DNA of 64,000 nucleotides from an uncultured Bacteroidales bacterium (GTDB taxonomy: Bacteria; Bacteroidota; Bacteroidia; Bacteroidales; Muribaculaceae): assembly GCA_902793405.1 (NCBI GenBank), contig CADBDH010000007.1, positions 5,712-69,711 of the forward strand. The letters are read 5' to 3'. Shown here in pieces: positions 2,301-56,859 of the stretch (the stretch's first letter is position 1; every line of letters starts with the position of its first letter). The notes under the pieces are model-generated. The model did no database searches, had not been told where the DNA came from, and saw nothing but the letters and a program-made list of their open reading frames with translations. The position numbers were made by a program, and so were the translations under genes.

Positions 2301-2888
2301 TTATTTCTTTTCGACCTTGATAAGCTGCACGTCAAAGATGAGCGTCGAGTTGGGTTGGATGGGACCGGTGCCGTGGGGGCCATAGGCGAGATTAGACGGG
2401 ATGAACAGCCTGTAGGCCGAACCCTCGCGCATCAGCTGCAGACCCTCGACCCAACCGGGGATGACCTGGCCGACAGCAAAGGTGGCGGGCTCGCCGCGCT
2501 CCACGCTGCTGTCAAACACGGTGCCGTCAATCAGCTTGCCGGTATAGTGTACGGTAACCACGTCGTTGGGGCCGGGCTTCTCACCTTCACCCTCTTTAAT
2601 CACCTGATACTGGAGGCCGCTGGCGGTAACCTGTACGCCCTCGGCACTCTTGTTCTTCTCGAGATATTCGCGACCCAGACGCTCGTTCTCCTCGGCTCCC
2701 TGCTTCTCCAGGTTGGTGAAGAATTCGGTGACGATTTGTTTAGCCTCGTCAAAGGTCATCTTCTGCTCTGCACCTTCAAAAATGGCCCTCAAGCCATCGG
2801 CAAAGTCATTGATATCCAGTTTCTTGATGCCCGAGCCAATGAAGTTTCCACCCATGCTCAAGCCTAATGCGTAACTCAATTTATCCAT
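2301..2888 (-). CDS. fklB: FKBP-type PPIase (FklB/Mip-like), no signal peptide
   Basis: N-terminal DKLSYALG dimerisation motif. Also VHYTGKLIDGTVFDSS and VIPGWVEGL. Confidence 0.9.
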   Translation of the reverse strand: MDKLSYALGLSMGGNFIGSGIKKLDINDFADGLRAIFEGAEQKMTFDEAKQIVTEFFTNLEKQGAEENERLGREYLEKNKSAEGVQVTASGLQYQVIKEGEGEKPGPNDVVTVHYTGKLIDGTVFDSSVERGEPATFAVGQVIPGWVEGLQLMREGSAYRLFIPSNLAYGPHGTGPIQPNSTLIFDVQLIKVEKK

Positions 2889-2920
2889 TGAAAAATCTTC
2901 TTTTTTTGTAAAAAACGGTG

Positions 2921-2978
2921 CAAAGATAGTGATTTATGTGATTGGGTGTACTTTTTTAGAAAAAATTTACTATTTTTG
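2921..2978. promoter_or_regulatory. Divergent Bacteroidetes promoter pair (-7 boxes)
   Basis: TATCTTTG on the minus strand (2921-2928) and TATTTTTG on the plus strand (2971-2978). Both match the TAnnTTTG consensus. Confidence 0.6.
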
Positions 2979-3023
2979 CTATCACATTAGTAAATAACCT
3001 GTGATAACTTTAATAAGAGGCAA

Positions 3024-3740
3024 ATGACTATGAACAAGAAGAAATTAGTGATTTCGTCAGGAGCTGGCATCAGCGCCGAGAGCGGCATCAAGACCTTCCG
3101 CGATTCCGATGGCCTGTGGGAAAATTATCCTGTGATGGAGGTGGCAAGTCACGAGGGCTTCCTGCGCAATCCGGCCCTCATCCACAAGTTCTATAACGAG
3201 CGCCGTGCGCAACTGGTCAACGCCCAGCCCAATGCTGCCCATCTGGGCCTGGTGGAACTGGAGAAGGACTTTGACGTGCGCGTCATCACCCAGAATGTGG
3301 ACGACCTGCACGAGCGTGCCGGCAGCACCCATGTCCTGCACCTGCACGGCGAGTTGATGAAGGTGCGCTCGCTCAGGCGCGAAGACAGGGAGTACGTCCT
3401 GCCTTGTGATCAGCTGACCGACAAGGGCCTGGTGACCAGCGTGGACACGCGCGACCCCTATGGCGACCCTGTGAGGCCCCACATCGTCTTCTTCGGTGAG
3501 GCTGTGCCCAACATGGAGGCTGCGGCCCAACTGGCACACGATGCCGACATCTTTGTCGTCATCGGCACCACGCTGGTGGTTTATCCTGCCGCTGCACTCA
3601 TCCAGTATGTGAAGCGCGGTGTGCCCATCTATTACATCGACCCCAATCCCGCCTCGGTGCCCGACTGGGTACATGTAATCAAGAAGCCGGCAACCCAAGG
3701 TGTCGCCGACCTGATCAACATCCTGCGCAACAACGCATGA
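3024..3740 (+). CDS. cobB: NAD-dependent protein deacylase (sirtuin)
   Basis: Motifs GAGISAESGIKTFR, TQNVDDLHERAG, HLHG, RPHIVFFGE and GTTLVVYPAA. The start may be the second Met at 3030. Confidence 0.93.
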   Translation: MTMNKKKLVISSGAGISAESGIKTFRDSDGLWENYPVMEVASHEGFLRNPALIHKFYNERRAQLVNAQPNAAHLGLVELEKDFDVRVITQNVDDLHERAGSTHVLHLHGELMKVRSLRREDREYVLPCDQLTDKGLVTSVDTRDPYGDPVRPHIVFFGEAVPNMEAAAQLAHDADIFVVIGTTLVVYPAAALIQYVKRGVPIYYIDPNPASVPDWVHVIKKPATQGVADLINILRNNA

Positions 3741-3766
3741 AAAAAGTTAGGGCAAGAAGGCCAGCC

Positions 3767-3794
3767 CTCTAAACCCTAAACTCTAAACTCTAAA
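3767..3794. repeat. Heptamer tandem array (CTCTAAA x4, one unit CCCTAAA)
   Basis: Read directly from the sequence. It reads TTTAGAG on the minus strand, downstream of the lipoprotein gene. Confidence 0.8.
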
Positions 3795-3797
3795 CTT

Positions 3798-3827
3798 CAA
3801 GGAGGCAAGCATCTGCTTGCCTCCTTG
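3798..3827. terminator. Bidirectional intrinsic terminator
   Basis: Perfect 13-bp stem CAAGGAGGCAAGC-ATCT-GCTTGCCTCCTTG between convergent genes. Confidence 0.8.
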
Positions 3828-3829
3828 AA

Positions 3830-4186
3830 TTAATCCTTGAACTTGATGATGCAGTCTTCGCCAGCATGAATCGTGACGATGTCCTGATAGAGCAGGCGCT
3901 CGTTCTTTTGCCTGACCATCACCTGTCGCGTTCCTTGTTGGGCGCCGTAGCGCATTCCCTTGACCTCGCCGTCGACAATCTGGGCGGTCGAGGCCAGAAA
4001 GGTCTTGTCAAGGCCCGAGATGTTGACCCACAGGTCATCATACTGCTTGCCCGACTCGCTCACAAATATCAAGAAACCGAAGGTGTCATAAGTGCCGGTG
4101 CCTTTTGCCAGCTTGTAGCTGTAGCCCGAGCAAGCGCTCAGCAACAGGCACACGAGGCATAACAATGCTGGCAAGAACCGTTTCAT
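3830..4186 (-). CDS. Small hypothetical lipoprotein
   Basis: Signal MKRFLPALLCLVCLLLSAC (ATG at 4186). The mature part looks beta-rich. It lies immediately downstream of the SDR gene. Confidence 0.7.
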   Translation of the reverse strand: MKRFLPALLCLVCLLLSACSGYSYKLAKGTGTYDTFGFLIFVSESGKQYDDLWVNISGLDKTFLASTAQIVDGEVKGMRYGAQQGTRQVMVRQKNERLLYQDIVTIHAGEDCIIKFKD

Positions 4187-4199
4187 CGTCACAGTCTAT

Positions 4200-5159
4200 T
4201 TACTTGGTGATGCCGAACTTGATGCGCAATTTCTCGATCATGTCCTTGGTCATGGCATCGAGGTCGTACTCGGGCTTCCAGTCCCACTCCACGCGGGCAC
4301 AGGTGTCGTCCAGCTTGTTGGGCCAGCTGTCGGCAATGCCTTGACGCAGCGGGTCAACTTCATACTCCATCTCAAACTCGGGGATGTACTCCTTGATCTT
4401 GTGGTAGATGACCTCGGGATCAAAGCTCATCGAAGCGATGTTGAACGAGTTGCGGTGTACAAGACGCGTCGGGTCGGCCTCCATGATCTCGATGGCGGCG
4501 CGCAGGGCGTCGGGCATGTACATCATGTCCATCAGCGTGCCGGGAGCGATAGGGCAGATGAACTTCTTGCCCTGGACGGCGCTATAATAGATGTCCACGG
4601 CATAGTCGGTAGTGCCGCCACCCGGAGGGGTCACGTAGCTGATCAGGCCGGGGAAGCGCACCGAGCGGGTGTCCACACCGAACTTGAGGGCGTAGTAGTT
4701 GCTCAGCAACTCACCGGTCACCTTGGTAACACCGTACATCGTGCGGGGCTGCTGGATGGTGTCTTGGGGAGTGCCGTCCTTGGGAGCATTGGGGCCAAAC
4801 GAACCGATGCTGCTGGGGGTAAACACAGCGCATTTCTTCTCGCGTGACACCTCGAGCACGTTCATCAAACCGTCGATGCCGATGTGCCAGGCCAGTTGGG
4901 GCTTGTTCTCGGCAACGGCGCTCAGCAGGGCTGCCAGGTTGTAGATGGTGTCGATGTTGTACTTGTCGACCACAGCGCCGATTTGGGCGGCGTTGGTGAT
5001 GTCAACGATTTCCGAGGGACCGCTCTCGGCGAGTTCGCCCTTGGGCTCGGCGCCAGGAATATAACCGGCCACCACGTTGCCTGTGTAGATACCTCTCAAC
5101 TTCATTGTCAGCTCCGAACCGATTTGTCCTGTCGAGCCGATAATCAGAATATTTTTCAT
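4200..5159 (-). CDS. NAD-dependent epimerase/dehydratase family, L-threonine 3-dehydrogenase-like extended SDR
   Basis: GSTGQIG Rossmann motif, YGVTK catalytic YxxxK, and PGGGTTDYAV, which is typical of SDR-type threonine dehydrogenases. Confidence 0.85.
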   Translation of the reverse strand: MKNILIIGSTGQIGSELTMKLRGIYTGNVVAGYIPGAEPKGELAESGPSEIVDITNAAQIGAVVDKYNIDTIYNLAALLSAVAENKPQLAWHIGIDGLMNVLEVSREKKCAVFTPSSIGSFGPNAPKDGTPQDTIQQPRTMYGVTKVTGELLSNYYALKFGVDTRSVRFPGLISYVTPPGGGTTDYAVDIYYSAVQGKKFICPIAPGTLMDMMYMPDALRAAIEIMEADPTRLVHRNSFNIASMSFDPEVIYHKIKEYIPEFEMEYEVDPLRQGIADSWPNKLDDTCARVEWDWKPEYDLDAMTKDMIEKLRIKFGITK

Positions 5160-14558: not shown

Positions 14559-14607
14559 ATTTAGTCCTTAGTTTTTAGTCCTTAGTTTTTAGTTCTTAGT
14601 TGTTAGT
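14559..14607. repeat. Heptamer tandem array (NNTTAGT x7; ACTAANN on the coding strand)
   Basis: ATTTAGT CCTTAGT TTTTAGT CCTTAGT TTTTAGT TCTTAGT TGTTAGT. It fills most of the spacer and ends 1 nt from the downstream ATG. Confidence 0.9.
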
Positions 14608-14614
14608 TGTTATG

Positions 14615-26051: not shown

Positions 26052-26165
26052 ATGTAGTTGTAAGTTTTAAGTTTTTAGTTTTAAGTAAAGATTCCTTAGC
26101 TTTAATGTTTTTCAGGCGATAGTAATATTACTTATCACTTAAAACTTACAACTTAAAAACTTAAA
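26052..26165. repeat. Inverted pair of heptamer arrays (TTTAAGT-type x5, then ACTTAAA-type x5)
   Basis: 26052-26086 ATGTAGT TGTAAGT TTTAAGT TTTTAGT TTTAAGT. 26130-26165 ACTTATC ACTTAAA ACTTACA ACTTAAA (A) ACTTAAA. Confidence 0.85.
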
Positions 26166-26172
26166 AGATAAC

Positions 26173-27404: not shown

Positions 27405-29468
27405 ATGATATTTGCTATGAAAAAGTTTTTTACTACTGCAGTGGTCATTATGTTGCCCTTGCTGATGATGGCACAGGGCTGGCCCACAAAGTATGATGGC
27501 GTGATGTTGCAGGGCTTTTATTGGGACTCGTTCAATGACTCCCGTTGGCCCAAGCTCGAGGCTCAGGCCGATGAACTGGCCGAGTTCTTCAGTCTCGTTT
27601 GGGTTCCTCAGAGCGGTAATTGCGGCGGCACGTCGATGGGCTATGACGACCTGTACTGGTTCTCCAACTACAGCAGCTCGTTTGGCAATGAGTCGCAGCT
27701 TCGTTCGATGATCAACACCTTCAAGAACAAGGGCATCGGCACCATTGCCGACGTGGTCATCAACCACCGCAAGAGCAACAACGGATGGTTCGGCTTCCCC
27801 ACCGAGGTATACAGGGGTTTGACCTACACGATGTCATCGACCGACGTCTGCTCCAACGATGACGGCGGCCAGGCCCAGACCGAGGCCAACCGCCTGGGTG
27901 TGCAGCTCGGCAACCCCGACACGGGCGAGGACTGGTCCGGCATGCGTGACCTTGACCACAAGAGCGCTAACGTGCAGCGTTGTGTCAAGGCCTATCTGAA
28001 GTTCTTGCTCAACGATCTGGGCTATGCCGGTTTCCGTTACGATATGACCAAGGGTTATGCCGCCTCCTATACGGGCATGTATAATGTGGATGCAGCCCCC
28101 GAGTTCTCGGTGGGTGAGTTCTGGGATGGCTATCTGCCCACGGTAAAGGGCTGGATTGACGGGACCAAGGTGGATGGCGTGGTGCAGAGTGCCGCCTTCG
28201 ACTTCCCCTTCCGTTACACCATTCGTGACGCCGCCAACAACAACAGGTGGACCAGCTTGGGCGGCAGCGGCAAGGGCCTGTGCCTGGAAAACAACTACAA
28301 GCGCTATGCCGTGACCTTTATCGAGAACCACGATACCGAGTACCGCAGCGCGTCGGCACCCCAGGATCCCATCAAGAGCAACATCGAGGCCGCTAACGCC
28401 TATCTGCTCTCCATGCCTGGCACGCCGTGCGTCTTCCTCAAGCACTGGAAGGATTACAAGGAGAGCATCAAGCAGATGATTTACGTGCGTCAGCTGGCAG
28501 GCATCTCCAACACGAGTACGACCAACAACTTCAGCAAGAACGATGCCGCCAACTACTATGTGCAGCGCACCCAGGGTGACCGCGGCATGGTGCTTGCCGC
28601 CATGGGCACCACGGCCTATACGATTCCTCAGACCTATGTTGTCGTCGCTAGCGGCACCAACTACCGTCTTGCACTGAGCAAGACCACCGAGACCGCTTGG
28701 GTGAGCAAGCCCAGCGGCGAGTATGAAGGCGCCTTCAGCGTGACGTTCACCGCCGTGAGCCAGACCGCAGGAGCGCGTCTCGTCTATACCCTGGACGGCA
28801 GCGAACCCACTGCCAGCAACGGTACCCGGGTCGATGATGGCAGCAGCATCAACATCAACAAGTCGGTAACCCTCAAGGTGGGTCTGTTGATTGGTAATGC
28901 GGTGAGCGGTGTCATCACCCGCCACTACACCATCGACAACAGTGAGTTCGTGCCCTATGAAATCACCGTCTATCTCAAAGACCCGACCGTGGCTCCCAAC
29001 AACTGGTCGTCGGTTTACTTCTTCACCTGGGACAGCAACGACAAAACCTTTAACGGCAACTGGCCGGGTGAGAAGATGACCGCCACCAAGGTCATCAACG
29101 GCGTCAAGTTCTATTATGACACCTACCAGATCACGGGCAAGAACTACTACATGAACTTCGTGTTCAACCAGGGGTCCAGCAGCGGCCAGACCGAGGACGT
29201 GACCTATGTCAACAAGACCTCCTTCTTCGAGATTGCCACTACGACCAACAAATATCAGGTGAGGGACATCACCGACCAGTTCCTTGTTGTCAAGGGCGAT
29301 GTGAACGGCGACAGCGAGGTGAATATCGCCGACGTTAACTGCATCATCGACATCATCCTCGGCCATAAGACTGCCGCCGAGTTTGAGGGACGTGCCGATG
29401 TGAACGGTGACACCGAGGTGAATATCGCCGATGTTAACGCTATTATTGACATTATCTTAGGCTCTTGA
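27405..29468 (+). CDS. Secreted alpha-amylase (GH13) with Fn3/chitobiase-like, starch-binding-like and C-terminal dockerin-like modules
   Basis: Catalytic GFRYDMTKG, VGEFW and FIENHDT. YTLDGSEPT (Fn3-like). YFFTW...WPG (CBM25/26-like). Duplicated DVNGDxEVNIAD. The start may be 27417. Confidence 0.92.
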   Translation: MIFAMKKFFTTAVVIMLPLLMMAQGWPTKYDGVMLQGFYWDSFNDSRWPKLEAQADELAEFFSLVWVPQSGNCGGTSMGYDDLYWFSNYSSSFGNESQLRSMINTFKNKGIGTIADVVINHRKSNNGWFGFPTEVYRGLTYTMSSTDVCSNDDGGQAQTEANRLGVQLGNPDTGEDWSGMRDLDHKSANVQRCVKAYLKFLLNDLGYAGFRYDMTKGYAASYTGMYNVDAAPEFSVGEFWDGYLPTVKGWIDGTKVDGVVQSAAFDFPFRYTIRDAANNNRWTSLGGSGKGLCLENNYKRYAVTFIENHDTEYRSASAPQDPIKSNIEAANAYLLSMPGTPCVFLKHWKDYKESIKQMIYVRQLAGISNTSTTNNFSKNDAANYYVQRTQGDRGMVLAAMGTTAYTIPQTYVVVASGTNYRLALSKTTETAWVSKPSGEYEGAFSVTFTAVSQTAGARLVYTLDGSEPTASNGTRVDDGSSININKSVTLKVGLLIGNAVSGVITRHYTIDNSEFVPYEITVYLKDPTVAPNNWSSVYFFTWDSNDKTFNGNWPGEKMTATKVINGVKFYYDTYQITGKNYYMNFVFNQGSSSGQTEDVTYVNKTSFFEIATTTNKYQVRDITDQFLVVKGDVNGDSEVNIADVNCIIDIILGHKTAAEFEGRADVNGDTEVNIADVNAIIDIILGS

Positions 29469-29484
29469 GCATTGATAAAACGAA

Positions 29485-30843
29485 ATGAACAGATTCTTTA
29501 GATTCTTCTGTTTGGCATTGGCACTGACCGCTTTCAGTGCCAATGCCGCTGTGTATGGCGACGTGAACGGCGATGCCGAGGTGAATATCGCCGACGTGAA
29601 CGCCATCATCAACATGATATTGAATGACGACCCCGATCTGAGGGGTGACGTGAACAATGACGGTGAAATCAATATTGCCGACGTGAATGCCGTCATCGAG
29701 GTCATCCTGGGCTTGCACGAGGATCCCGTCTATGACGGCCCTGTTGTGGGTGGCGACATCTCGATGCTGACCAAGTATGAGGCCCACCAGCGCATGGCTT
29801 TGCGCTACGGCATCACTAACGCACATTACTATGATGTGAACGCACAGGTCATTAATGATGTCATCACGTGGACCAAGCAGCAGGGATGGAACGCGGCACG
29901 TGTGCGCCTGTTTGTCAACCCTGCCAATGCCTCGACGGCCGACAAGGGCCAAGGTGTGATTCAGAATCTGGATACCGTCAAGGTGCTGGGACGTCGCATC
30001 AAGGACGCAGGCATGCGGTTCATGCTCGACTTCCATTATAGCGACAGCTGGGCCGACCCCGTTAAGCAATTCACGCCTGCCGAGTGGGCTGGCCTGGACG
30101 ATGAGGCTTTGACTCAGCGCGTCTATGAGTACACCCGCGACTGCCTGCGTGCCCTCAAGGCTGCCGGCGCTACCCCCGATTATATCCAGACGGGCAACGA
30201 AATCAGCTACGGCATGTTGTGGGGACCGGTGGGAACGCCATCAAGCCAGTTGAAGAAATGCTACATGGGCGACGAGACTAACTGGGAACGCTTTACCAAC
30301 CTGCTCAAGGCTGCGGGCCGAGCCTGCCGTGAGGAGTGTCCGAAGGCTAAAATCATCCTCCACACCGAGCGAGTGGCCAAGCCCAACATCATGCTCAACT
30401 TCTACAACCAGATGAAGAGCAGGCAGGTGGATTATGACATCATCGGACTGAGCTACTATCCTTATTACCATGGCAGCCTGTCTGTCCTGGCCAATGCGCT
30501 CAACAGCTTGACCAACAACTATCAGGACAAGGAAATCATGATTGTCGAAACGGGCTACTGCTACCACTATGCGATTTCGGGCGACTACGACCTCTCGTCG
30601 ACGTGGCCCATCACCGCCGAGGGACAACGGCAGTTCACGGCCGACCTGATAGCACGCCTCAAGCCTTACAGCAAGGTCAAGGGTCTGTTCTGGTGGTTCC
30701 CCGAGGCCAACGAGTACGGCCTGGGCGGCAGCTACTGGAGCACGCTCCACGTCAACGACGCGTGGTACAATGCCGGCCTGTGGAATCATGAGACCGGCAG
30801 GGCATTGCCGGCCCTTTACGAGCTCAAGAATTTCGTTCAGTAA
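29485..30843 (+). CDS. GH53 endo-1,4-beta-galactanase with N-terminal dockerin-like module
   Basis: Signal peptide, duplicated DVNxDxE(V/I)NIAD, then GGDIS, RVRLFVNP, LDFHYSDSWADP, QTGNEI (acid/base) and IVETG (nucleophile). Confidence 0.92.
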   Translation: MNRFFRFFCLALALTAFSANAAVYGDVNGDAEVNIADVNAIINMILNDDPDLRGDVNNDGEINIADVNAVIEVILGLHEDPVYDGPVVGGDISMLTKYEAHQRMALRYGITNAHYYDVNAQVINDVITWTKQQGWNAARVRLFVNPANASTADKGQGVIQNLDTVKVLGRRIKDAGMRFMLDFHYSDSWADPVKQFTPAEWAGLDDEALTQRVYEYTRDCLRALKAAGATPDYIQTGNEISYGMLWGPVGTPSSQLKKCYMGDETNWERFTNLLKAAGRACREECPKAKIILHTERVAKPNIMLNFYNQMKSRQVDYDIIGLSYYPYYHGSLSVLANALNSLTNNYQDKEIMIVETGYCYHYAISGDYDLSSTWPITAEGQRQFTADLIARLKPYSKVKGLFWWFPEANEYGLGGSYWSTLHVNDAWYNAGLWNHETGRALPALYELKNFVQ

Positions 30844-37033: not shown

Positions 37034-37071
37034 CAAAATTACAAAAATAACCGCTTTTTTATCTAATTTTG
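37034..37071. promoter_or_regulatory. Divergent -7 boxes for murF and ddl
   Basis: TAATTTTG on the minus strand (37034-37041) and on the plus strand (37064-37071). Confidence 0.6.
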
Positions 37072-37098
37072 CACCCGAAATTTAATGTGCGCAATAAA

Positions 37099-38100
37099 AT
37101 GAATATGACCAAGAGAACCATAGCCATCGTGTGTGGTGGCGACTCCTCGGAATATGAGGTTTCCCTGCGTTCGGCCCAAGGCATTGATTCGGCAATGGAC
37201 CATGAGCGTTATGATGTATATATCGTCCTGATTAGGAAAGAGGACTGGCATGTCAACCTGCCCGACGGACGCCAGCCTGCCATCGACAAGAACGACTTCT
37301 CGTTCATGAAGGACGGCGAGAAAATCCGCTTCGACTATGCTTATATCACCATCCATGGCACCCCGGGCGAGAACGGCGTGTTGCAAGGCTACTTCGACAT
37401 GATAGACCTGCCTTACTCGACCTGTAACGTGCTGGTCGAGGCGTTGACGTTCCACAAGTTTGCCCTGAACAACTACCTGCGTGCCTTTGGCTGCTCTGTC
37501 CCCGACAGCATCCAGGTGCGTCGCGGTGTGCCTCACGGATGGACCGCCGAGAAGGTCAAGGACTATCTGGGCATGCCCTGCTTTGTGAAGCCCACTGCCG
37601 ACGGTTCGAGCTTCGGCGTGACCAAGGTGAAAAGCTGTGACCAGCTGGACGAAGCCATGGAGTTTGCCTTCAAGCAGTGCGACAACGTGATGATTGAGCG
37701 CTTCCTTGACGGCACCGAGGTCACCGTGGGCTGCTACAAGACCAAGAACAAATCGGTGGTATTCCCCGTTACCGAGGTCGTGACCGACAACGAGTTCTTC
37801 GACTACGATGCCAAGTACAATGGCCAGGTGGAGGAAATCACTCCCGCCCGCATCAGCGATGAACTGACCGCTGCCCTCCAGGCCGAGACGTCACGCATCT
37901 ACGACATCCTGCACTGCAACGGCATCATCCGCATCGACTACATCATCACCAAGAACCCCGACGGCAGCGACCACATCAACCTGCTGGAGATCAACACCAC
38001 CCCCGGCATGACCGTCACCAGCTTCATCCCCCAGCAAGTGCGCGCCGCCGGCCTCGACCTGAAAGACGTCCTCACCGACATCATCGAGAACCAGTTCTAG
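37099..38100 (+). CDS. ddl: D-alanine--D-alanine ligase
   Basis: GGDSSEYEVSLRSA, HGTPGENG, GSSFGV, FFDYDAKY and LEINTTPGMT. Start at 37099 or 37105. Confidence 0.96.
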   Translation: MNMTKRTIAIVCGGDSSEYEVSLRSAQGIDSAMDHERYDVYIVLIRKEDWHVNLPDGRQPAIDKNDFSFMKDGEKIRFDYAYITIHGTPGENGVLQGYFDMIDLPYSTCNVLVEALTFHKFALNNYLRAFGCSVPDSIQVRRGVPHGWTAEKVKDYLGMPCFVKPTADGSSFGVTKVKSCDQLDEAMEFAFKQCDNVMIERFLDGTEVTVGCYKTKNKSVVFPVTEVVTDNEFFDYDAKYNGQVEEITPARISDELTAALQAETSRIYDILHCNGIIRIDYIITKNPDGSDHINLLEINTTPGMTVTSFIPQQVRAAGLDLKDVLTDIIENQF

Positions 38101-38108
38101 CTCTTAAC

Positions 38109-38251
38109 GGACGGACCTAACGGATAAAACGGATATAATGGATAAAACGGAGGCAACGGGAACGCCCGCTTCCTCCGTTTTCATTTTTAATTCCGTAAAT
38201 TCCGTAAATTCCGTAATCTCCGTTAATTCCGTTACATCCGTCAAGTCCGTC
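38109..38251. repeat. Facing nonamer arrays (ACGGA core x6, then TCCGT core x7) around a central hairpin
   Basis: ACGGA-like cores at 38111, 38120, 38129, 38138, 38147 and 38156. TCCGT at 38192, 38201, 38210, 38219, 38228, 38237 and 38246 (period 9). Confidence 0.9.
38144..38181. terminator. Bidirectional terminator built from the nonamer arrays
   Basis: AAAACGGAGG...CCTCCGTTTT perfect outer stem with an inner CGGG/CCCG pair. Confidence 0.75.
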
Positions 38252-38930
38252 CTTTCTCATCGAGCAGGGCTTTTAGCCGCGCGATTTCTTGCTTGAGTGC
38301 AGCAATTTCCCGTGCTTGCTGCTCGATGATTTCCCTTTGAGTCGCACGTTGTTCAAGCCGTGCAGCGGTCATGCGCTCACGCACACCGCCCTCGGTAGTG
38401 AATTCACGGTCTTTCCTCTCGATGTATTTGTTCAATGCGGCATCTACTTGATGACACAGGCAGATGGCCATGTTAGCCATTTCTTCATCGTTCATCTTGG
38501 GCAGCAACTCCTTGTAATCCTCAAATTTGCTGTGTGCTCGGCAAAAGTCGAGCATGGCTTTATATCGGGGATGAGTGCCATACCACTCGGTGTATCCTTT
38601 GCGTTTGATGTAGTCCTGGTAGTCCTCGAGCAGTTCCTTGTTGCTCCCGCGGGCAAATCCCAATAGTTTCAATTCACTCTCCACCGAGGTCTCACCATCA
38701 CTGCTGCCCTCAACGATGTTCTGTTTGCAGCTGCGGGCGGCTTGAACCATCTGGTCAACAGTGCGGTCGCCATAATGTTTCAGAAAACGCTGGCAAAACA
38801 CCTGAGTCAATTGGTACAGCACGTCACTCCGCTGATAAAAACGCAACTCGGTATATATTGTCCTACGGCGCAACGAGCTGGCAGTCCCATCCTCGTAATG
38901 GCTAATACGAGGTTTCATTTTGTCCTCCAT
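38241..38930 (-). CDS. Four-helix-bundle protein with suffix domain (23S rRNA IVS/Avd-like family)
   Basis: TVDQMVQAARSCKQNIVEG, ELLEDYQDY, EMANMAICL and the suffix motif FTTEGGVRERMTAAR. Confidence 0.88.
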   Translation of the reverse strand: MEDKMKPRISHYEDGTASSLRRRTIYTELRFYQRSDVLYQLTQVFCQRFLKHYGDRTVDQMVQAARSCKQNIVEGSSDGETSVESELKLLGFARGSNKELLEDYQDYIKRKGYTEWYGTHPRYKAMLDFCRAHSKFEDYKELLPKMNDEEMANMAICLCHQVDAALNKYIERKDREFTTEGGVRERMTAARLEQRATQREIIEQQAREIAALKQEIARLKALLDEKGRT

Positions 38931-38937
38931 AAAACTC

Positions 38938-38973
38938 TGTTCCGTTAACTCCGTAATCTCCGTTAAGTCCGTC
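38938..38973. repeat. Nonamer array (TCCGT core x4), direct copy of the array at the gene's 3' side
   Basis: TCCGT at 38941, 38950, 38959 and 38968. The 17-mer TCCGTAATCTCCGTTAA is identical at 38210-38226 and 38950-38966. Confidence 0.9.
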
Positions 38974-38983
38974 TAACAACCCC

Positions 38984-40906
38984 TTAATTGTGGATGATCA
39001 GTGCTGATTGTGCTGGCACTGTTACTTTGCCGTCTTTGGTCTTGACGGTGGAGATGCCGGATTGGTCGCACTTGATGTTGCGGCAGACGATGGTGTAGGT
39101 GCCGTCGGGGACCTCGATGGAGCGGGCGCGCTTTTGGGCATTGAAGGCCACATAGATGTCGCCCCAGGACTCGCCGGGCACGTTACGGCCGTTGATGTGA
39201 TAGGCAACGAGGCAGTTCTGTGTGGGCAGGAAGTCGAGGTTGCGGCGCACCATCTCGGCACTGCCCATGTGGAAGGCGGGATGGGCCTTGCGCAGGGCAA
39301 TCAGCCCCTTGTAGTAGTCCATCACCTGAGGGTAGCACTCCAGGTTGCCCCAATCCAGATGGTTGATGCTGTCGGGGCTCTCGTAGCTGTTGTGCACACC
39401 CTTCTTGTCGCGCAGCATCTCCTCACCGCTGAGCATGAACGGCACGCCCTGCGAGGTCATGACCACGGTCTGTGCCATCAGGTCCAGGCGGATGAGTTCA
39501 TCGATGGTGATGCCCTTGACGCTGGCCTTGAGGCGGTCCACCAGGCACATGTCGTCGTGACAGCTCACGTAGGCGATCATCTGGGTCGGCTCGTTGGCAT
39601 AGGGCGCCTTGCTGTAGTTCACTTGGCTGTAGTCCACACCGGGATGCTGGATGGCTCCCACGATGCCGAACTTGATGCTCTCCTCGTTGCCCTTCACGCC
39701 ACCCAGGAAGGCAGCCTTGCTGTTGCTGTCCCACGGGCCGCGCAGTGCGTCGCGCATCTCGTCGCTGAAGGCGGCGATGCCCGGCATCTTATTGATGTTG
39801 GCCTTCATGGCCAGCTCTCCCGAGTAAGCGCAACTGCCGGCGCTCCAGCCCTCACCATAGATGAAGATATCCTGGGGCACAGCATTGCGGATGGCGTTCA
39901 TCGTCTCGATATCGTGCACACCCATCAGGTCGAAGCGGAAGCCGTCGATGTGGTATTCGTCCACCCAGTATTTCACGCTCTCGACCATGAACTGGCGCAT
40001 GCCCTCGCGCTCGCTGGCCGTCTCGTTGCCGCAGCCGCTGCCGTTGCTGTAGGTGCCGTCGGCATTCTTGCGGTAGAAGTAGTCGGGACGGGTGAGCTGG
40101 AAGTTGCTGCCGTCGATGTTCCAGGTGTGGTTATACACCACGTCCAGGATGACCTTGATACCTGCCTTGTGCAGGGCCTGTACCATCTGCTTGAACTCGC
40201 TGATGCGCACCTCGGGCTTGTAGGGATCGGTCGAGTAACCGCCCTCGGGCACATTGTAGTTCACGGGGTCATAGCCCCAGTTGTACTGCGGTTGGTCGAG
40301 GCGTGTCTCATCGACCGAGGCATAGTCAAACGAGGGTAGGATATGCACCGCATTGACGCCTAGAGCCTTCAGGTGGCTGATGGCGCGCGGCTCGGTCAAG
40401 GCAAGGAATTTGCCCTTGTAGGTAAAGTCGCTTGATTCATCGATGGAGAAGTCGCGGTGATGCATCTCATACAGGATGAGGTCCTTAGCCGCAATAGCGG
40501 GGCGCTTGTCGGCGTCCCAGCCCTGTGGATTGGTCGCTGCCATGTCAACGATGGCGCCGCGCTTGCCGTTCACGCCCACGGCGGTGGCCCAGATGCCCGG
40601 ACACTCGCCGCGGAACTTGCCGTCATATTTCACGTCGAAGGTGTAGAATTTGCCCTTCAGGTCACCCTTGACCGAGGCCTGCCACATTGTGCTGCCCGAC
40701 TTGTCGCGCTTCATGGCGATGGTCTTGACGGGTTTGCCGCCCAGGCCGTCTTTGTAGATGCGCAGTTTCACCTGCTGGGCATTGTTGTTGGTCTCTACAC
40801 TGAAATAGCTCGCGCCGGGGGTGTAGTTCACCCCGGTGCGAGCATTCATTAGTTGCGGTACGAGTAATGCCATGATTATCGCTACCAGTGATAAGAGATG
40901 TCTCAT
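38984..40906 (-). CDS. pulA: Type I pullulanase (GH13)
   Basis: YNWGYDP, GFRFDLMG, YGEGW and YVSCHDD. The start overlaps the malQ stop (TAATG). Confidence 0.93.
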   Translation of the reverse strand: MRHLLSLVAIIMALLVPQLMNARTGVNYTPGASYFSVETNNNAQQVKLRIYKDGLGGKPVKTIAMKRDKSGSTMWQASVKGDLKGKFYTFDVKYDGKFRGECPGIWATAVGVNGKRGAIVDMAATNPQGWDADKRPAIAAKDLILYEMHHRDFSIDESSDFTYKGKFLALTEPRAISHLKALGVNAVHILPSFDYASVDETRLDQPQYNWGYDPVNYNVPEGGYSTDPYKPEVRISEFKQMVQALHKAGIKVILDVVYNHTWNIDGSNFQLTRPDYFYRKNADGTYSNGSGCGNETASEREGMRQFMVESVKYWVDEYHIDGFRFDLMGVHDIETMNAIRNAVPQDIFIYGEGWSAGSCAYSGELAMKANINKMPGIAAFSDEMRDALRGPWDSNSKAAFLGGVKGNEESIKFGIVGAIQHPGVDYSQVNYSKAPYANEPTQMIAYVSCHDDMCLVDRLKASVKGITIDELIRLDLMAQTVVMTSQGVPFMLSGEEMLRDKKGVHNSYESPDSINHLDWGNLECYPQVMDYYKGLIALRKAHPAFHMGSAEMVRRNLDFLPTQNCLVAYHINGRNVPGESWGDIYVAFNAQKRARSIEVPDGTYTIVCRNIKCDQSGISTVKTKDGKVTVPAQSALIIHN

Positions 40907-43587
40907 TATCGTCCGTTTTGAGTGATGATTTCTTTCACATGTCCGTTGAACTCGTCGGCCTTCATCAGCTGCTCGATGGTCATGTGCATGCGGTAACGCC
41001 AGTAGTGGCGCGGGTTGGCGGGGATGTTGATGCGCTCGGCATCGGCATCTTCAATACGCATCTTCTCGTCGATGGCGAGCCAGTCCTGCAACGAGAGCAG
41101 GCACAGCATCGACGGGCAAGCCAGGTGGCTGCGCACGATGTCGTCGGCCAGCCAGCCGGGCAGCGGATGGGGTGCTGCACCGTTTTGCCACAACGAGGTG
41201 TTGAAGAACTCTTGGGTGCGGTCCCAGTCCTCGTCCCACCATTGCCTCATGGTGGGCATGTCATGGGTCGAGACGGTGGCAACGCTGCGGTAGGGGTTGG
41301 AGCTCAGGTTGCCGAACTTGATGTGGTTGTCCTTGGGCATCGATTGGATTTCGAGGCTCAGGATGCGCAATTCGTTCATTACCCATGCCACGCAGTCGGG
41401 CACCATGCCCAGGTCTTCGGCACACACGAGCATGCGGGTAGCCTGCACCAGTTTGGGCAGTTTCTTCATGGCCTCGTGATACCAGAAGTCGTTGTTGCGG
41501 TGGTAGTAGTACTCGTTGTAGAGCTTGTTGAAGGCAGCCTTGTCGTTGTCGTAGAGTGTCTCGTAAATGAAATCGAACTGTACCGAGATGCGCGGATGGA
41601 ACAGGGCCGGGTTCTTGCGGTCACGCACGAACAGCACGTCGCTGATCAAGGCATACAGGCCGTCACGCAGCCAGATGTCCTCCTCGCTCTCCTTGCCCTT
41701 GAAGGCAGCCTCGATCTTGCGCTGGGTGTCAAACTCGGGCTTCATGCGGTAGATGTCGTCATGCACGCGCTCGACATACTTCTGGCGCACGGTGTCGGCC
41801 AGCTTGCCGAAGATGCGGTCCAGTACCCAATCGGCGATGAACGGCTCGGTCATCAGCTTCTCCTGGAAGTTGAGGCCGTAGCTGCGGATTTCGTCGGCGC
41901 TCATGCCCAGCGAGGGCGAGAACTGGCCCAGCAGGCCGTGAACGGCATTGATGGGGATTTCCCAGATGCGGAAGAAGCCCAGCACGTGGTCGATGCGGTA
42001 GGCGTCGAAATACTGTGACATCTTGCGGAAGCGTTTTACCCACCACTTGCAGCCGTCGGCGAGCATCACGTCCCAGTTATAGGTCGGGAAGCCCCAGTTC
42101 TGACCGTTGGTCGAGAAGGCATCGGGCGGAGCACCGGCCTGGCCGTTGAGGTTGAAGTACTTGGGCTCTACCCATGCCTCGACGCTGTCGCGGCTGATGC
42201 CGATGGGGATGTCACCCTTGAGGATGACGTGTTTGCTCTGGGCATACTTGTGGGCACTGCGCATCTGCTTGTCCAGGTAGTACTGCACATAGTACCACAG
42301 GCTCACCTCCTTGTAGGCCTTGGTGCGGGGATTGGCCAGCGCAGCGCGCTCCTCGTCGGTGAAGATGTGGTTGGAGGGCCACTTGGAGAACGATGCCGTG
42401 CCATACAGGTCGCGGTAGTGGCAGAAGGCGGCATAGGGCACCAGCCAATCCTGGTTGGCGGTGAAGAAGGCCTTGAACTCGTCGCTCTTGAGCACGCCGG
42501 CGCCTTCCTGCTCAAAGAGCAACTTCATGTATTCGCGCTTGGCGTTGTTCACGCGCTCATAGTCGATTTGGGGCAGTGCATTCAGCTCCTTGCGCAGTTT
42601 CTCGAACTCGGCGGCGCGTTTCTTGTCGTCGAGTTTGGGCAACTGGCGCAGGTCCATGTACTGGGGATGCAGGGCATAGATGCTGATGCTGTTGTAGGGG
42701 TAGCTGTCGCTCCACGTGTGGGTGATGGTGGTGTCGTTGATGGGCAGCACTTGCAGGGCGCGCTGGCCGGTCTTTGCCACCCAGTCCACCATGAGCTTCA
42801 GGTCGCCAAAGTCGCCCACGCCGAAGCTGCCTTCGCTGCGAAGCGAGAAGATAGGCACCACGGTGCCGGCCAGCTTGACGGGATACAGGGGGAAGTAGGC
42901 CTGCGACAGCTCATAGACGATGTGCTCACCCTCCTTGAGGACGGGCAGCAGCACGGTGCGGTTGTCGCCGGTCTCCCAGATGACTTTCTTGCCCTTGCCG
43001 CCCATGATGACGAACTTGAACTCGACAAAGGCCTTCTTGAAGGCGCTGCCGTCGAGCGAGATGACCCACTCGTTGTGGTTGTGCTCGGTCATCTTCAGGG
43101 CCTTGCTCTCGTCCCAGTCGCCCAGGGTGGGCTCGTTGCCCACCACGCCCAGCGTCTCGCCCGTGCGCAGCTGCGGTGCACGCACCTTCAGTTGCACGAT
43201 GGTGGCATACTTGCACTTGGCGGGGTCCTGCAGTTTGCGCAGGGCCACACAGTCGGTAAAGGCCGAGCTGTACAGGTAGCTGTCGTCGGGCATGTCGTTC
43301 CAGTGGTCATAGGTGATGTAGCGGGAAGCCTTGGCGGCATTCAGGTCCAGACGGTGGGGGATGACCATCCACTCATGACGTTGCTCCTTGCCTTCACGCT
43401 CCACGCTGTAGTAATAGTTGATGTGTCCCACCTTGGCGGGAAAGTCCATGTCGCATTTCCACGACTTGTCGGTCGCGGGCTTCATCACGTTGCGCGACAC
43501 TTTTCCGTCCTCGGCATTATTCACGATATTGAGTACCAGGGTTTCACCATAGATGGTGCTGTACTCGATGTTGAATCTTACTTTCAT
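40906..43587 (-). CDS. malQ: 4-alpha-glucanotransferase (GH77, DPE2-type with two CBM20 domains)
   Basis: N-terminal CBM20-like domains (LGDWD..KA; VIWETGDNR), GDIPIG, QNWGFPTY, RIDHVLG, AEDLG and STHD. Confidence 0.95.
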   Translation of the reverse strand: MKVRFNIEYSTIYGETLVLNIVNNAEDGKVSRNVMKPATDKSWKCDMDFPAKVGHINYYYSVEREGKEQRHEWMVIPHRLDLNAAKASRYITYDHWNDMPDDSYLYSSAFTDCVALRKLQDPAKCKYATIVQLKVRAPQLRTGETLGVVGNEPTLGDWDESKALKMTEHNHNEWVISLDGSAFKKAFVEFKFVIMGGKGKKVIWETGDNRTVLLPVLKEGEHIVYELSQAYFPLYPVKLAGTVVPIFSLRSEGSFGVGDFGDLKLMVDWVAKTGQRALQVLPINDTTITHTWSDSYPYNSISIYALHPQYMDLRQLPKLDDKKRAAEFEKLRKELNALPQIDYERVNNAKREYMKLLFEQEGAGVLKSDEFKAFFTANQDWLVPYAAFCHYRDLYGTASFSKWPSNHIFTDEERAALANPRTKAYKEVSLWYYVQYYLDKQMRSAHKYAQSKHVILKGDIPIGISRDSVEAWVEPKYFNLNGQAGAPPDAFSTNGQNWGFPTYNWDVMLADGCKWWVKRFRKMSQYFDAYRIDHVLGFFRIWEIPINAVHGLLGQFSPSLGMSADEIRSYGLNFQEKLMTEPFIADWVLDRIFGKLADTVRQKYVERVHDDIYRMKPEFDTQRKIEAAFKGKESEEDIWLRDGLYALISDVLFVRDRKNPALFHPRISVQFDFIYETLYDNDKAAFNKLYNEYYYHRNNDFWYHEAMKKLPKLVQATRMLVCAEDLGMVPDCVAWVMNELRILSLEIQSMPKDNHIKFGNLSSNPYRSVATVSTHDMPTMRQWWDEDWDRTQEFFNTSLWQNGAAPHPLPGWLADDIVRSHLACPSMLCLLSLQDWLAIDEKMRIEDADAERINIPANPRHYWRYRMHMTIEQLMKADEFNGHVKEIITQNGR

Positions 43588-43597
43588 AATATTTTGT

Positions 43598-43625
43598 CTT
43601 TAGTCTATAGTCTATAGTTTTTAGG
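43598..43625. repeat. Heptamer array x4 (CTTTAGT CTATAGT CTATAGT TTTTAGG)
   Basis: Located in the malT-malQ spacer. It reads as ACTA-core units on the coding strand just before the malQ start. Confidence 0.7.
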
Positions 43626-46371: not shown

Positions 46372-46466
46372 TTTAGGCTTTAGGCTTCAGACTTTAGGTC
46401 AATAACTGAAGCCTAACTCCTAACTCCTAACGCCTAACTTCTCACTTCTAACTCCTAACGCCTAAT
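46372..46466. repeat. Opposed heptamer arrays (TTTAGGC-type x4, then NCCTAAC-type x8)
   Basis: 46372-46399 TTTAGGC TTTAGGC TTCAGAC TTTAGGT. 46411-46466 GCCTAAC TCCTAAC TCCTAAC GCCTAAC TTCTCAC TTCTAAC TCCTAAC GCCTAAT, running into the ATG. Confidence 0.9.
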
Positions 46467-48762: not shown

Positions 48763-48766
48763 GGGG

Positions 48767-48931
48767 AGTTAGAAGTTAGGAGTTAGGAATTAGGAGTTAG
48801 AAGTTAGGAGTTAGAAGTTAGGAGTTAGGAGTTAGGAGTTGGCATTTGTCAACAACTAGGGACTAGAAACTAAAAACTAAGAACTAGAAACTAGGGACTA
48901 GGGACTAGAAACTAAGGACTAAAAACTAAAA
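48767..48931. repeat. Two adjacent heptamer arrays (AGTTAGR x10, then ACTARNN x11)
   Basis: 48767-48836 AGTTAGA/AGTTAGG units, then 48855-48931 ACTAGGG/ACTAGAA/ACTAAAA/ACTAAGA/ACTAAGG units ending 4 nt before ATG 48936. Confidence 0.95.
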
Positions 48932-48935
48932 ACTT

Positions 48936-51542: not shown

Positions 51543-51612
51543 TCACTCCTAACTCCTCACTCCTAACTCCTCACTCCTAACTCCTCACTTCTAACTTCTC
51601 ACTTCTAACTCT
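51543..51612. repeat. Heptamer array x10 with strict TCACTYC/TAACTYY alternation (14-bp super-period)
   Basis: TCACTCC TAACTCC x3, then TCACTTC TAACTTC TCACTTC TAACTCT. Contains the stop codon of the upstream GT4. Confidence 0.92.
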
Positions 51613-52699
51613 TGACTCCCAGCATTTTGCGGGCACAGGCCACGTTGGTCAGTTCTTTGCCCTCCTTGACACATGCAGCATGCATCTTGTCGTAGTTGTT
51701 GATGACCTCAATCAAGTCATTCTCGTCCCAGTTGTCGCGCACGACGCCCAGCCCGTTGGCAGCGATGAACGATGCCGTTGAGGGTTTCGTATTGGTCACG
51801 ACGGGAGTGCCGCTGGTGATGGCCTCGGCAATGGTGACCATGTTCAGGTCATTACTGGTATCCACCAGCAGCGCCAGCGCGTGCCTGAGGGGCTCGGCTA
51901 GTCGTTCATGTGACAGGAAACCGTGGAACACCACATTTTTTTCAATACCCAACTTGGATGCCATCTGTTTTAATTCTTGCATCTGGTCGCCGTCCCCAAT
52001 GATGTCCAGGCGGTAATTATGATAAGGCTCTTGACTCACGAGACGGGCAAACTTAGTGATGATGCTGTCCACATTTTTGCGCTTGACCAGTTGAGAGACG
52101 ACAATGAAGGCATTTTCCACATGGTCGCTGGGGTAGAGTGTGTGGGCATCGGTGCCATGGTCCACAATCACGTCGCTCACGTGACGGCTGTAGCGGCTCA
52201 TGAAACGCTTGGCGGGCTCGCTGCGCGGCACGATGGTCACCTGTCCCATGAACGTCGGGACAATGACATTGTGCCAGAACTTGGACGGCAGTTTGAACAA
52301 CAGGCGCTGATGGCGATCCATCTCTTGCCAGATGAGCAACTTGGACTTGCAGACACCGGCGGCGATGAGGGTGGCAATCTGGAACGATTCGCTCGCAATC
52401 ACCAGGTCATATTCGGTCGAGTGCTGCTTGAGCCAGGCGCGCATTCCCCTGGGCCAGGGCAGCAGGGTTGGTTTGAACACTTGCGGCAACCGGGAGGGGA
52501 AATAAACGACTTCGAAGGGTAATTGCTCATCTTTGCCTGTGGGCATGAACTCCTGCGACGCCAGCAACGTCACCTCATGGCCCAACTCGATAAAACCGCG
52601 CGCAAAGGTGCTGATCATGCAATCGCTGATGGATTCCTTGCGCTTGATGATGCCATGCTCGGCGGTCGAGAGTATGCAGTTAATGATGAGTACCTTCAT
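51605..52699 (-). CDS. GT4 glycosyltransferase
   Basis: VVSQLVKRKNVD, DIIGDG, VVFHGFL and MVTIAEAITSGTPVV. Start reassigned to ATG 52699, with a -7 box at 52721-52728 on the minus strand. Confidence 0.85.
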   Translation of the reverse strand: MKVLIINCILSTAEHGIIKRKESISDCMISTFARGFIELGHEVTLLASQEFMPTGKDEQLPFEVVYFPSRLPQVFKPTLLPWPRGMRAWLKQHSTEYDLVIASESFQIATLIAAGVCKSKLLIWQEMDRHQRLLFKLPSKFWHNVIVPTFMGQVTIVPRSEPAKRFMSRYSRHVSDVIVDHGTDAHTLYPSDHVENAFIVVSQLVKRKNVDSIITKFARLVSQEPYHNYRLDIIGDGDQMQELKQMASKLGIEKNVVFHGFLSHERLAEPLRHALALLVDTSNDLNMVTIAEAITSGTPVVTNTKPSTASFIAANGLGVVRDNWDENDLIEVINNYDKMHAACVKEGKELTNVACARKMLGVKS

Positions 52700-56778: not shown

Positions 56779-56803
56779 CTTCTATATGCGTTAGGTTTTA
56801 CCA

Positions 56804-56859
56804 ACTACCAACTAAGGACTAACAACTAGAAACTAGGGACTAGAAACTAGAAACTAAAT
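56804..56859. repeat. Heptamer array x8 (ACTANNN)
   Basis: ACTACCA ACTAAGG ACTAACA ACTAGAA ACTAGGG ACTAGAA ACTAGAA ACTAAAT. On the coding strand it starts at the wzc stop codon. Confidence 0.92.

Follow-up and report, generated by a model that had tools for sequence, protein, structure and literature searches.

Short-period repeat arrays embed a four-helix-bundle gene in a candidate intervening-sequence-like module of Bacteroidales

Intervening sequences (IVSs) in the 23S rRNA of Leptospira and Coxiella carry an S23p open reading frame (ORF) bordered by complementary ends, are cut by RNase III, and are sporadically present (PMC4990558). The IVS ORFs were described in the 1990s, and the role of their protein has been a question for about 30 years. 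Stand-alone S23p or "23S rRNA intervening sequence protein" genes are among the commonest orphan genes in Bacteroidota and other phyla. Here we analyzed a member of this family, a four-helix-bundle (4HB) gene encoding 229 amino acids (aa), within a 64,000-nucleotide stretch from an uncultured Bacteroidales bacterium of the Muribaculaceae (contig CADBDH010000007.1, positions 5,712 to 69,711; the whole stretch is called the window, and positions are numbered from its first letter). The gene lies between convergent ddl and pulA genes and is embedded in three arrays of 9-nt repeats (A1, A2 and A3). We read the locus as an IVS-like module whose arrays are recombination substrates, terminator arms and, probably, binding sites of the protein, a reading to which we assign a probability of about 0.5. 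A literature search found no prior description of four-helix-bundle genes as array-embedded modules. The features of the locus are as follows.

37069 to 38100, plus strand: ddl (D-Ala-D-Ala ligase), convergent with the module; stop codon at 38098-38100; the array hairpin is its putative terminator
38106 to 38151, plus strand: array A3, about 5 ACGGA-N4 units directly after the ddl stop codon; ddl-side hairpin arm
38146 to 38179, no strand: GC-rich hairpin apex, AACGGAGGCAACGGGAACGCCCGCTTCCTCCGTT, then a T-rich run at 38178-38189; kept in orthologous loci
38189 to 38255, minus strand: array A2, about 7 units (TCCGT on the plus strand, ACGGA in the gene sense), predicted to pair with A3; 3' end and putative 3' untranslated region (UTR) of the four-helix-bundle gene, holding its stop codon (38241-38243)
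38210 to 38226, plus strand: 17-mer TCCGTAATCTCCGTTAA, copy 1, within A2; exact match
38241 to 38930, minus strand: four-helix-bundle coding sequence (CDS), 229 aa, supported by domain profiles, predicted fold and dN/dS
38931 to 38983, minus strand: 53-nt spacer between pulA and the four-helix-bundle gene, containing A1 and no TAnnTTTG promoter box
38941 to 38972, minus strand: array A1, about 4 units oriented as A2, stopping 10 nt short of the ATG; able to pair with A3
38950 to 38966, plus strand: 17-mer TCCGTAATCTCCGTTAA, copy 2, within A1; exact match
38984 to 40906, minus strand: pulA-like glycoside hydrolase (GH) 13 gene, with the four-helix-bundle gene directly downstream on the same strand
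40906 to 43587, minus strand: GH77 gene; strand order GH77, pulA, four-helix-bundle gene

The module resembles an IVS in the fold family of its protein, its position inside an otherwise simple hairpin, its sporadic occurrence among close relatives, and the orphan function of the protein. Its ORF is likewise bordered by complementary sequences that form a predicted stable stem (A1 with A3, -43.7 kcal/mol). Unlike an IVS, it lies between the protein-coding genes ddl and pulA and not in helix 9, 25 or 45 of 23S rRNA. Its borders are tandem 9-nt arrays, whereas those of an IVS are unique inverted repeats. It also has an extra internal array, A2, which would allow two alternative pairings, and its protein adds a suffix domain and a long C-terminal helix.

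Avd, the accessory protein of diversity-generating retroelements (DGRs), is a pentamer that binds nucleic acid and reverse transcriptase, and its binding has been reported as largely non-specific. The window's protein shares with bAvd the four-helix-bundle fold, and its solved relatives crystallized with five chains. In contrast to bAvd, it has a suffix domain, its locus has no reverse transcriptase, template repeat (TR) or variable repeat (VR), and its arrays suggest sequence- and register-specific recognition. As in REP/RAYT systems (REP, repetitive extragenic palindrome), one gene has its own short repeats on either side, gene-less hairpin copies occur elsewhere, and the hairpins are intergenic; here, however, the protein is a small helical bundle without HUH/Y1 nuclease motifs and the repeats are tandem arrays rather than single palindromes. 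Regularly spaced cores of 3-5 nt, each bound by one subunit of an oligomer to control termination or translation, are a feature of TRAP ((G/U)AG repeats), CsrA (GGA motifs in CsrB) and the ToxIN repeat RNA. Hypothetical binding in the module would be similar, but these proteins have no homology to the module's protein, and the minimal shared core in the module is GGA. The type III toxin-antitoxin system ToxIN differs further in that ToxI units are structured and 34-45 nt long, compared to 9 nt here, and the module's four-helix-bundle protein had no PADLOC match. For an integron gene cassette one would expect a promoterless ORF with a 3' hairpin recombination site beside an integrase and attI, and a circular intermediate. 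The ORF here has a 3' hairpin and seemingly no promoter of its own, no integrase was found within 10 kb on either side, and the assembled contigs, which drop rare forms, showed no circle.

Known repeats of comparable period are the TAACTGA-type heptamer direct repeats, found just a few nucleotides before start codons in Bacteroidetes and other groups. It was suggested that some post-transcriptional regulator binds them, and no link to four-helix-bundle genes was made (PMC4679880). The module shares with them short-period direct repeats, and the window's many 7-mer arrays look like this class. It differs in its period of 9, its GGA core, its arrays at both ends of genes of a single family, and its hairpin-forming inverted copies. 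Heptamer repeats before start codons (PMC4679880) and IVS elements with S23p ORFs (PMC4990558) are the parts of this picture that are already known.

A scan with one genome per species revealed relatives of the gene in 486 species, and array statistics were obtained from the best 80 loci. These came from rumen or gut Muribaculaceae, Prevotella, Bacteroidaceae and Paludibacteraceae and spanned about 40 different gene neighbourhoods. Arrays were counted when at least 4 CGGA units recurred every 9 nt no farther than 250 nt from an end of the gene. CGGA nonamer arrays adjoined the gene ends in 65 of the 80 species loci. The zone within 250 nt of the gene ends represented 6% of the sequence, with an array density about 113 times that of the rest of the loci. 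A motif-blind lag-9 scan recovered the CGGA consensus in 70 flanks, with within-array conservation of 0.86-0.95 at the 5 core positions, (A/C)CGGA, and 0.58-0.69 at the 4 spacer positions. The core was ACGGA in the window's clade and CCGGA in the remaining loci. The A1 and A2 arrays were more alike within than between loci, with 9 of 30 loci sharing at least 16 nt (p 2e-5 to 2e-3). This likeness, in about a third of loci, fits ongoing exchange between A1 and A2. The module, and not the gene alone, is the conserved unit: 9-nt arrays with a GGA core and free 4-nt spacers, found in about 40 neighbourhoods and two phyla.

The second phylum is represented by a clade of homologues from Kiritimatiellae (43% identity, locus GC 0.54-0.64). 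As arrays of other motifs occupy many intergenic regions of Bacteroidales, adjacency of gene and array alone could be trivial there. Two Kiritimatiellae contexts were found. In one, seven copies of GTAGGACGG come after the gene, then a loop and inverted GTCCTACAC; in the other, GGACGGACG lies upstream of the gene and inverted GTCCCGGAT downstream. These 9-nt arrays were the only ones of at least 3.5 copies in the 5.7-kb loci. With no other long arrays present, the second phylum removes the main confound. Both phyla thus conserve the period of 9 nt, the arrangement as a hairpin and, at the least, a GGA core. The suggestion that the protein is a trans-acting factor recognizing the repeats, made in the first-pass annotation of this DNA, is now much better motivated by this linkage, and the protein is a candidate for such a role. 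In several distant homologues the ORF calls run into the arrays, producing triplet-periodic "tails".

A shorter subfamily is associated with a different period. In other species of the genus, the ddl-pulA junction holds a short canonical four-helix-bundle gene of 122 aa, flanked by inverted heptamer arrays (GATTAGT upstream, ACTAATC downstream). Homologues of this gene in two further contexts had the same inverted 7-nt layout, making three contexts in all. The repeat period therefore tracks the protein subfamily, with 9 nt for suffix-domain proteins and 7 nt for the short canonical ones.

Heptamer arrays also occur in the window itself, at 3767-3796, 14560-14612, 26056-26166, 43596-43618, 46372-46465, 48765-48934, 51543-51619 and 56802-56857. 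Their motifs are TTAGTTC, AGTTTTA/ACTTAAA, TTTAGGC/CCTAACT, GGAGTTA/AACTAGR and ACTCCTA. Often an array is followed by a partly complementary one between a stop codon and the next start codon, and they resemble TAACTGA-type repeats (PMC4679880). The window contains no canonical short four-helix-bundle gene to explain them. The inverted pair at 26056-26166 is gene-less, and its arrays together with about 20 nt of inner sequence (AGTAATAtTACTATCGCCT) recur at both ends of a short four-helix-bundle cassette found elsewhere, in a different genome and gene context (L077 5440-6000). The two look like the gene-less and gene-bearing forms of one element.

Further arrays were noted across the collected loci. 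In L063 and L030 the gene has its own promoter, and the upstream array lies between promoter and ATG. The L030 promoter is TAnnTTTG-like, followed by the array in the 5' UTR; here, a leucine-rich repeat protein (489 aa) and a 224-aa gene (2445-4599) lie between pulA and the four-helix-bundle gene. Four loci (L055, L057, L062 and L104) contained a second CCGGA array about 1.5 kb upstream, between a membrane-protein gene and a flippase-like gene, such that the flippase-like gene preceding the four-helix-bundle gene is also bracketed by the same repeat. CCGGA nonamer arrays were found in frame within a 760-aa ORF (L050 8932-9007, encoding SGISGNPGISG...) and within a major facilitator superfamily transporter (L102 6477-6543, encoding PGKPGDSGKPGDSG...), in both cases as Gly/Ser/Pro linker-like sequence. 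A further nonamer class, with a CTAGA core (TCTAGAAAA), followed ddl in a more distant genus and preceded genes in another genome (L182 5020-5200; L185 ~1180-1260 and 3530-3580). Most public contigs with these four-helix-bundle genes were only about 0.5-1.5 kb long. The flanking arrays probably break metagenome assemblies, leaving such modules under-represented in metagenome-assembled genomes (MAGs).

The 229-aa protein scored above cutoff for two NCBIfam profiles, TIGR02436 (four helix bundle protein; 29.0 bits, cutoff 24) and TIGR04258 (four helix bundle suffix domain; 64.7 bits, cutoff 40), the latter at residues 148-196, C-terminal to the bundle. Its score for Pfam PF05635 (23S_rRNA_IVP) was 29.1, below the gathering score of 33.8, while most of its homologues have recorded precomputed PF05635 matches. 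The bundle comprises residues ~28-113 and a helix from 148, the suffix domain spans 148-196, and a coiled-coil-like C-terminal helix continues to ~225. An AlphaFold2 model (pLDDT 81.5) contained helices at 30-49, 56-75, 83-111 and 121-132 and one long helix at 148-225. Its best matches in the PDB, and its only convincing neighbours, were 2gsc (TM-score normalized to target 0.77-0.84) and 2rld (BT_0352), both S23-family proteins crystallized with five chains. The motifs QNIVEGS and ARGSNKEL align with NIAEGA and ARGSLSEL of 2gsc. Comparison to orthologues gave dN/dS values of 0.04-0.06, with dS >1 (saturated). This is a real, constrained gene under strong purifying selection, and the profiles and the match to pentamer structures place it in the S23p / 23S-IVS-protein / Avd fold family to which the first-pass annotation had assigned it. 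No PHROG match was found for the protein, and IMG/VR viral contigs contained no homologue. The subfamily exceeds 7,700 homologues, with 2,401 clusters at 50% identity in an exhaustive representative search.

Within the window, ddl (plus strand) and the GH77-pulA unit (minus strand, 43587 down to 38984) converge on an 883-bp interval. Tandem Repeats Finder reported a period of 9 for A3 (38119-38151, 3.7 copies, AACGGATAA), A2 (38189-38250, 6.9 copies, AATTCCGTA) and A1 (38941-38972, 3.6 copies, TCCGTAAAC). These agree with the original description of TCCGT-core arrays of seven and four units flanking the gene, with a third, inverted array after ddl. An inverted-repeat search paired 38106-38151 with 38210-38255 as arms of 46 nt, 76% complementary, with their units in register. 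The enclosing segment (38095-38262) folded at -58.3 kcal/mol on the plus strand and -72.4 kcal/mol on the minus strand (z -7.0 and -7.7), and no shuffle was as stable. Between the convergent units ddl and pulA-4HB, the inverted arrays thus form a predicted bidirectional hairpin of high stability; the first-pass annotation had read it as a bidirectional terminator. The stop codon of the four-helix-bundle gene (TCA on the plus strand) indeed falls inside an A2 unit.

The exact 17-bp match between A1 and A2, also reported from the first inspection, is present. TCCGTAATCTCCGTTAA occurs exactly twice, and shuffles predict 0.07 matches even with 3 mismatches allowed. If the arrays are taken as given, so that both cores are fixed and 7 A/T-rich positions can vary, the chance of sharing an exact 17-mer is p ~0.03. 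Upstream and downstream arrays from different loci shared at least 17 nt in 5.5% of comparisons, placing the window's match at about the 95th percentile. For these reasons the match is modestly exceptional, not extraordinary. It is specific to the window's lineage, being absent from the close strains L105 and L106.

To follow the ddl-pulA junction, 80 metagenome loci were fetched through Ddl and their junction states were compared within the genus. The nonamer module was present in the window's orientation in 12 loci. An inverted module (ddl>, 4HB>, <pulA), unforeseen in the first-pass annotation, was found in L125 and in the genome MAGs L026, L028 and L031. Two junctions were empty, with only an ACGGA array, a loop and a TCCGT array (L136, 95 bp, with arms in perfect 33-nt complement; L137, 96 bp). 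Others were empty with plain hairpins (L114, L129, L131 and L152; the last is more distantly related, at 77% Ddl identity). Another state of the same junction is the short four-helix-bundle gene flanked by heptamers. Four loci (L113, L121, L150 and L174) carried a DUF4160-like gene and a helix-turn-helix (HTH) gene, a toxin-antitoxin-like pair that adjoins a retained ACGGA hairpin in the first three. Others held zinc-ribbon membrane protein genes (one or two copies) or an acyltransferase (L115, L118; L148, L120). These states were interspersed on the ddl tree, and different states were found in loci with nearly identical ddl genes: module and empty ACGGA hairpin at 99.8% ddl identity (L135 and L136; 1015/1017 nt), module and DUF4160-HTH pair at 98.5% (L034 and L113), and inverted module and short four-helix-bundle gene at 97% (L125 and L151). 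The convergent ddl-pulA junction is a hot spot of gene turnover.

The first of these pairs supplies the empty site that had been predicted for the module, with L135 carrying the gene and L136, within the same species, the array hairpin alone. From murF onward their sequences are identical, across ddl, A3 and the apex, until they diverge 12 nt inside the TCCGT arm. An assembly artefact was rejected as the source of the empty allele, as unitigs from three independent sheep-gut runs crossed the L136 junction without mismatch. The longest word shared between upstream and downstream arrays in orthologous loci was 25 nt (L135 not included, as its contig ends before A1), which is probably too short to collapse an assembly. 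The L135 gene copy (~2620-2660, minus strand) has an in-frame stop arising from an inverted 8-nt loop between GCGC stems (TTCTATCA -> TGACAGAA); as this lies near the contig end, a small chance of an assembly artefact is left.

The outer arms are fixed in all alleles, ACGGA beside ddl and TCCGT beside pulA; what varies is the inner segment alone (apex, A2 and gene), which may be in place, missing or inverted. This pattern matches recombination of A1 with A2 (direct) or of A1 with A3 (inverted). Arrays also differed by whole units between strains. The existence of module, inverted and empty alleles, and a breakpoint of the empty allele inside the array, support deletion and inversion through the arrays; the polarity, excision versus insertion, is one that we infer. 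Among the contigs listed from four DNA runs on the window, none had a joint skipping ~740 bp or a circle; as assembled contigs drop rare forms, this does not argue against such products.

The four-helix-bundle gene is old and conserved at this position. In exact-protein look-ups, orthologues at 82-89% identity always followed GH77 and pulA on one strand, with genes 35-45 bp apart. In these loci ddl was usually convergent downstream, with a different gene there in one case. The four-helix-bundle gene lies downstream of pulA in most species of the genus. ACGGA arrays were present on both sides in all of these orthologous loci, with differing spacer letters and unit numbers, so the cores have outlasted the saturation of synonymous sites. 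Close strains of the window's species had 4 and 2 units, compared to 7 and 4 in the window, and lacked the 17-mer. A recent insertion at this locus is ruled out by the conserved position after pulA, a dN/dS of ~0.05, and saturated dS.

No Bacteroidetes -7 box (TAnnTTTG) was found within 470 nt upstream of the window's four-helix-bundle gene, which suggests that this gene lacks its own promoter and is transcribed by read-through from pulA, with A1 and A2 as its UTRs. A sigma-70 and terminator consensus scan was uninformative. Metatranscriptome contigs of low depth covered the CDS with A1 (38830-38976 and 38731-38975) and the CDS with A2 (38198-38386), and are weak evidence for the arrays as UTRs. 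In the sense RNA, predicted duplexes of A3 reached -55.6 kcal/mol with A2 and -43.7 kcal/mol with A1, compared to about -21 +/- 4.5 for shuffles. For the 896-nt sense RNA as a whole, the predicted minimum-free-energy fold joins A1 to A3 by 33 pairs and encloses the CDS. A strong hairpin was kept in all orthologues.

These data can be combined in a model of the IVS-like module, which would consist of A1, a CDS for four-helix bundle and suffix domain, A2, a GC apex, and inverted A3. Transcripts entering from pulA would carry A1 and A2 as UTRs. A3 could then pair with A2 to form a local terminator, or with A1 to form a stem enclosing the CDS as in a 23S rRNA intervening sequence, and the choice between these pairings may control termination and processing. 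The arrays may also be the cognate sites of the oligomeric protein, with one GGA core per subunit and RNA a more likely ligand than DNA. Binding would confer autoregulation and make the module self-contained. This part of the model is suggested by the conserved core and free spacers, the tracking of period with subfamily, conservation across phyla, and nucleic-acid binding by Avd. Deletion (A1 x A2, direct) and inversion (A1 x A3, inverted) could proceed by ordinary recombination or slippage, with no need for a dedicated recombinase.

Several observations weigh against this model. A clean CGGA array was missing from 15 of the 80 loci, most of which had degenerate CTGGA or CCAGA nonamers. Some CGGA arrays lay away from the gene or in frame inside unrelated CDSs. 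CCGGA nonamers were common in viral contigs, probably as collagen-like coding sequence; a scan for CCGGA x5 returned at least 120 stretches there, and the bare pattern is thus not specific. One short-4HB context has its arrays outside the gene's own promoter, resembling terminal inverted repeats, an arrangement more in favour of action on DNA than of a UTR role. In the occupied allele, L135, the contig runs out, so only one of the two breakpoints was seen, and the RNA evidence consists of low-depth assembled contigs in which DNA carry-over cannot be excluded. The array-binding step is argued from co-occurrence and by analogy to Avd. The hairpin arms showed no species-specific compensatory change, with an own-species duplex of -57.5 kcal/mol and a cross-species duplex of -52.9 kcal/mol. 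Finally, many intergenic spaces of Bacteroidales, both in the window and in the genomes of relatives, hold arrays of other motifs and no four-helix-bundle gene. The last two points fit the main rival explanation, a possible but unlikely one in our estimate: passive co-inheritance, in which slippage-prone spacer or terminator arrays travel with a hitchhiking gene whose protein is unrelated to them. It would also account for the variable number tandem repeat-like differences in unit number between strains and agrees with the heptamer direct repeats known before start codons in some Bacteroidetes, which have no four-helix-bundle link (PMC4679880). However, neutral slippage would homogenize or decay all nine positions alike, whereas the core is kept and the spacers are free. 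Core and 9-nt period also persist beside the gene despite saturation of dS, across about 40 contexts and into a second phylum otherwise free of intergenic arrays, and the period differs between protein subfamilies (9 versus 7).

An active mobile cassette, excised as a circle by a recombinase or transposase that is encoded elsewhere and recognizes the array hairpin (integron attC-, IS200/IS605- or REP/RAYT-like), appears rather improbable. It would explain presence and absence with a breakpoint inside the array, the ~40 gene neighbourhoods, and the range of contents (nonamer module, heptamer short 4HB, DUF4160/HTH, zinc-ribbon genes or acyltransferase) in sisters with ddl 95-98.5% identical. 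The gene-less 26056-26166 pair, matching the termini of a short-4HB cassette elsewhere, would then be reminiscent of an autonomous/non-autonomous pair. Against this, the 10 kb to each side encode no integrase or transposase, no fixed-length target-site duplication was visible and no insertion motif was found, and the contig data, which hide rare forms, contained no circle or excision junction. Across the genus the position has held while dS became saturated, IMG/VR viral contigs contain no member of the family, and deletion or inversion between repeats of 17-33 nt needs no dedicated enzyme. We consider it very unlikely that the arrays are translated at times, their units reading X-Gly-X and stop loss, read-through or unit changes yielding variable Gly-rich N- or C-terminal tails (phase or length variation). 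Gene calls extend through the arrays in many homologues (e.g. P0094 ...GNPGSPGYSGNPGNLG, P0101, P0245 and P0267), the 9-nt period preserves frame, and similar arrays are in frame in two unrelated CDSs. Yet most loci end the CDS in the first unit (GGA-TAA/TGA), later units contain more in-frame stops, the tails are not conserved, and arrays also occur upstream after a stop codon and inverted downstream, where they are unreadable in that frame. An Avd-type accessory role in a DGR has a negligible likelihood. The fold family is shared with Avd, and the short four-helix-bundle gene matches the PHROG "Avd protein of DGR" at 5e-6, but the 229-aa protein matched neither PHROG nor PADLOC. As the first-pass annotation had stated, there is no reverse transcriptase or rRNA here: no reverse transcriptase is encoded within 10 kb on either side of the gene, and the 64-kb window contained no rRNA or other Rfam family at gathering score, with nothing relevant in the region at E up to 10. 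No TR/VR-like repeat pair was found in the window, whose only long direct repeats (29288-29705) are dockerin modules. DGR membership of this locus is thereby refuted, unless a distant reverse transcriptase acts in trans.

The IVS-like module reading would give an orphan family a concrete candidate ligand, a conserved period-specific array attached to its gene. It would also connect the layout of rRNA IVSs to a wider class of hairpin-embedded cassettes, and the short-period intergenic repeats of Bacteroidetes and Cyanobacteria, so far unexplained (PMC4679880), would gain a candidate partner. The natural deletion, inversion and replacement alleles show that arrays shape gene content at convergent-gene junctions. 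A broader extension, which we regard as speculative and doubtful, is that the S23p / IVS-protein / Avd-like superfamily comprises register-specific binders of short-period repeats, the suffix subfamily recognizing 9-nt GGA-core arrays and the short subfamily 7-nt arrays, with the heptamer and nonamer hairpins of rumen Bacteroidales as genome-wide targets or footprints. If true, this would constitute a REP/RAYT- or CsrA/CsrB-like system in which the protein regulates, maintains or spreads arrays, and the gene-bearing hairpin would be the "autonomous" form.

Genes within 10 kb on either side of the four-helix-bundle gene are carbohydrate, cell-wall or transport genes. In L175 (5029-9029), Ddl is 99% identical to that of the window and murF and the amylase are 93% identical; downstream, an unrelated two-component-system region replaces the four-helix-bundle gene and pulA, in a recombinant or rearranged strain. 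Elsewhere in the window, a GH13 amylase with carbohydrate-binding module CBM26 (27405-29468) and a GH53 gene (29485-30843) both contain type I dockerin modules, and these account for the four direct repeats of 69 nt at 29288-29705. Finding dockerins in a member of the Bacteroidales merits attention.

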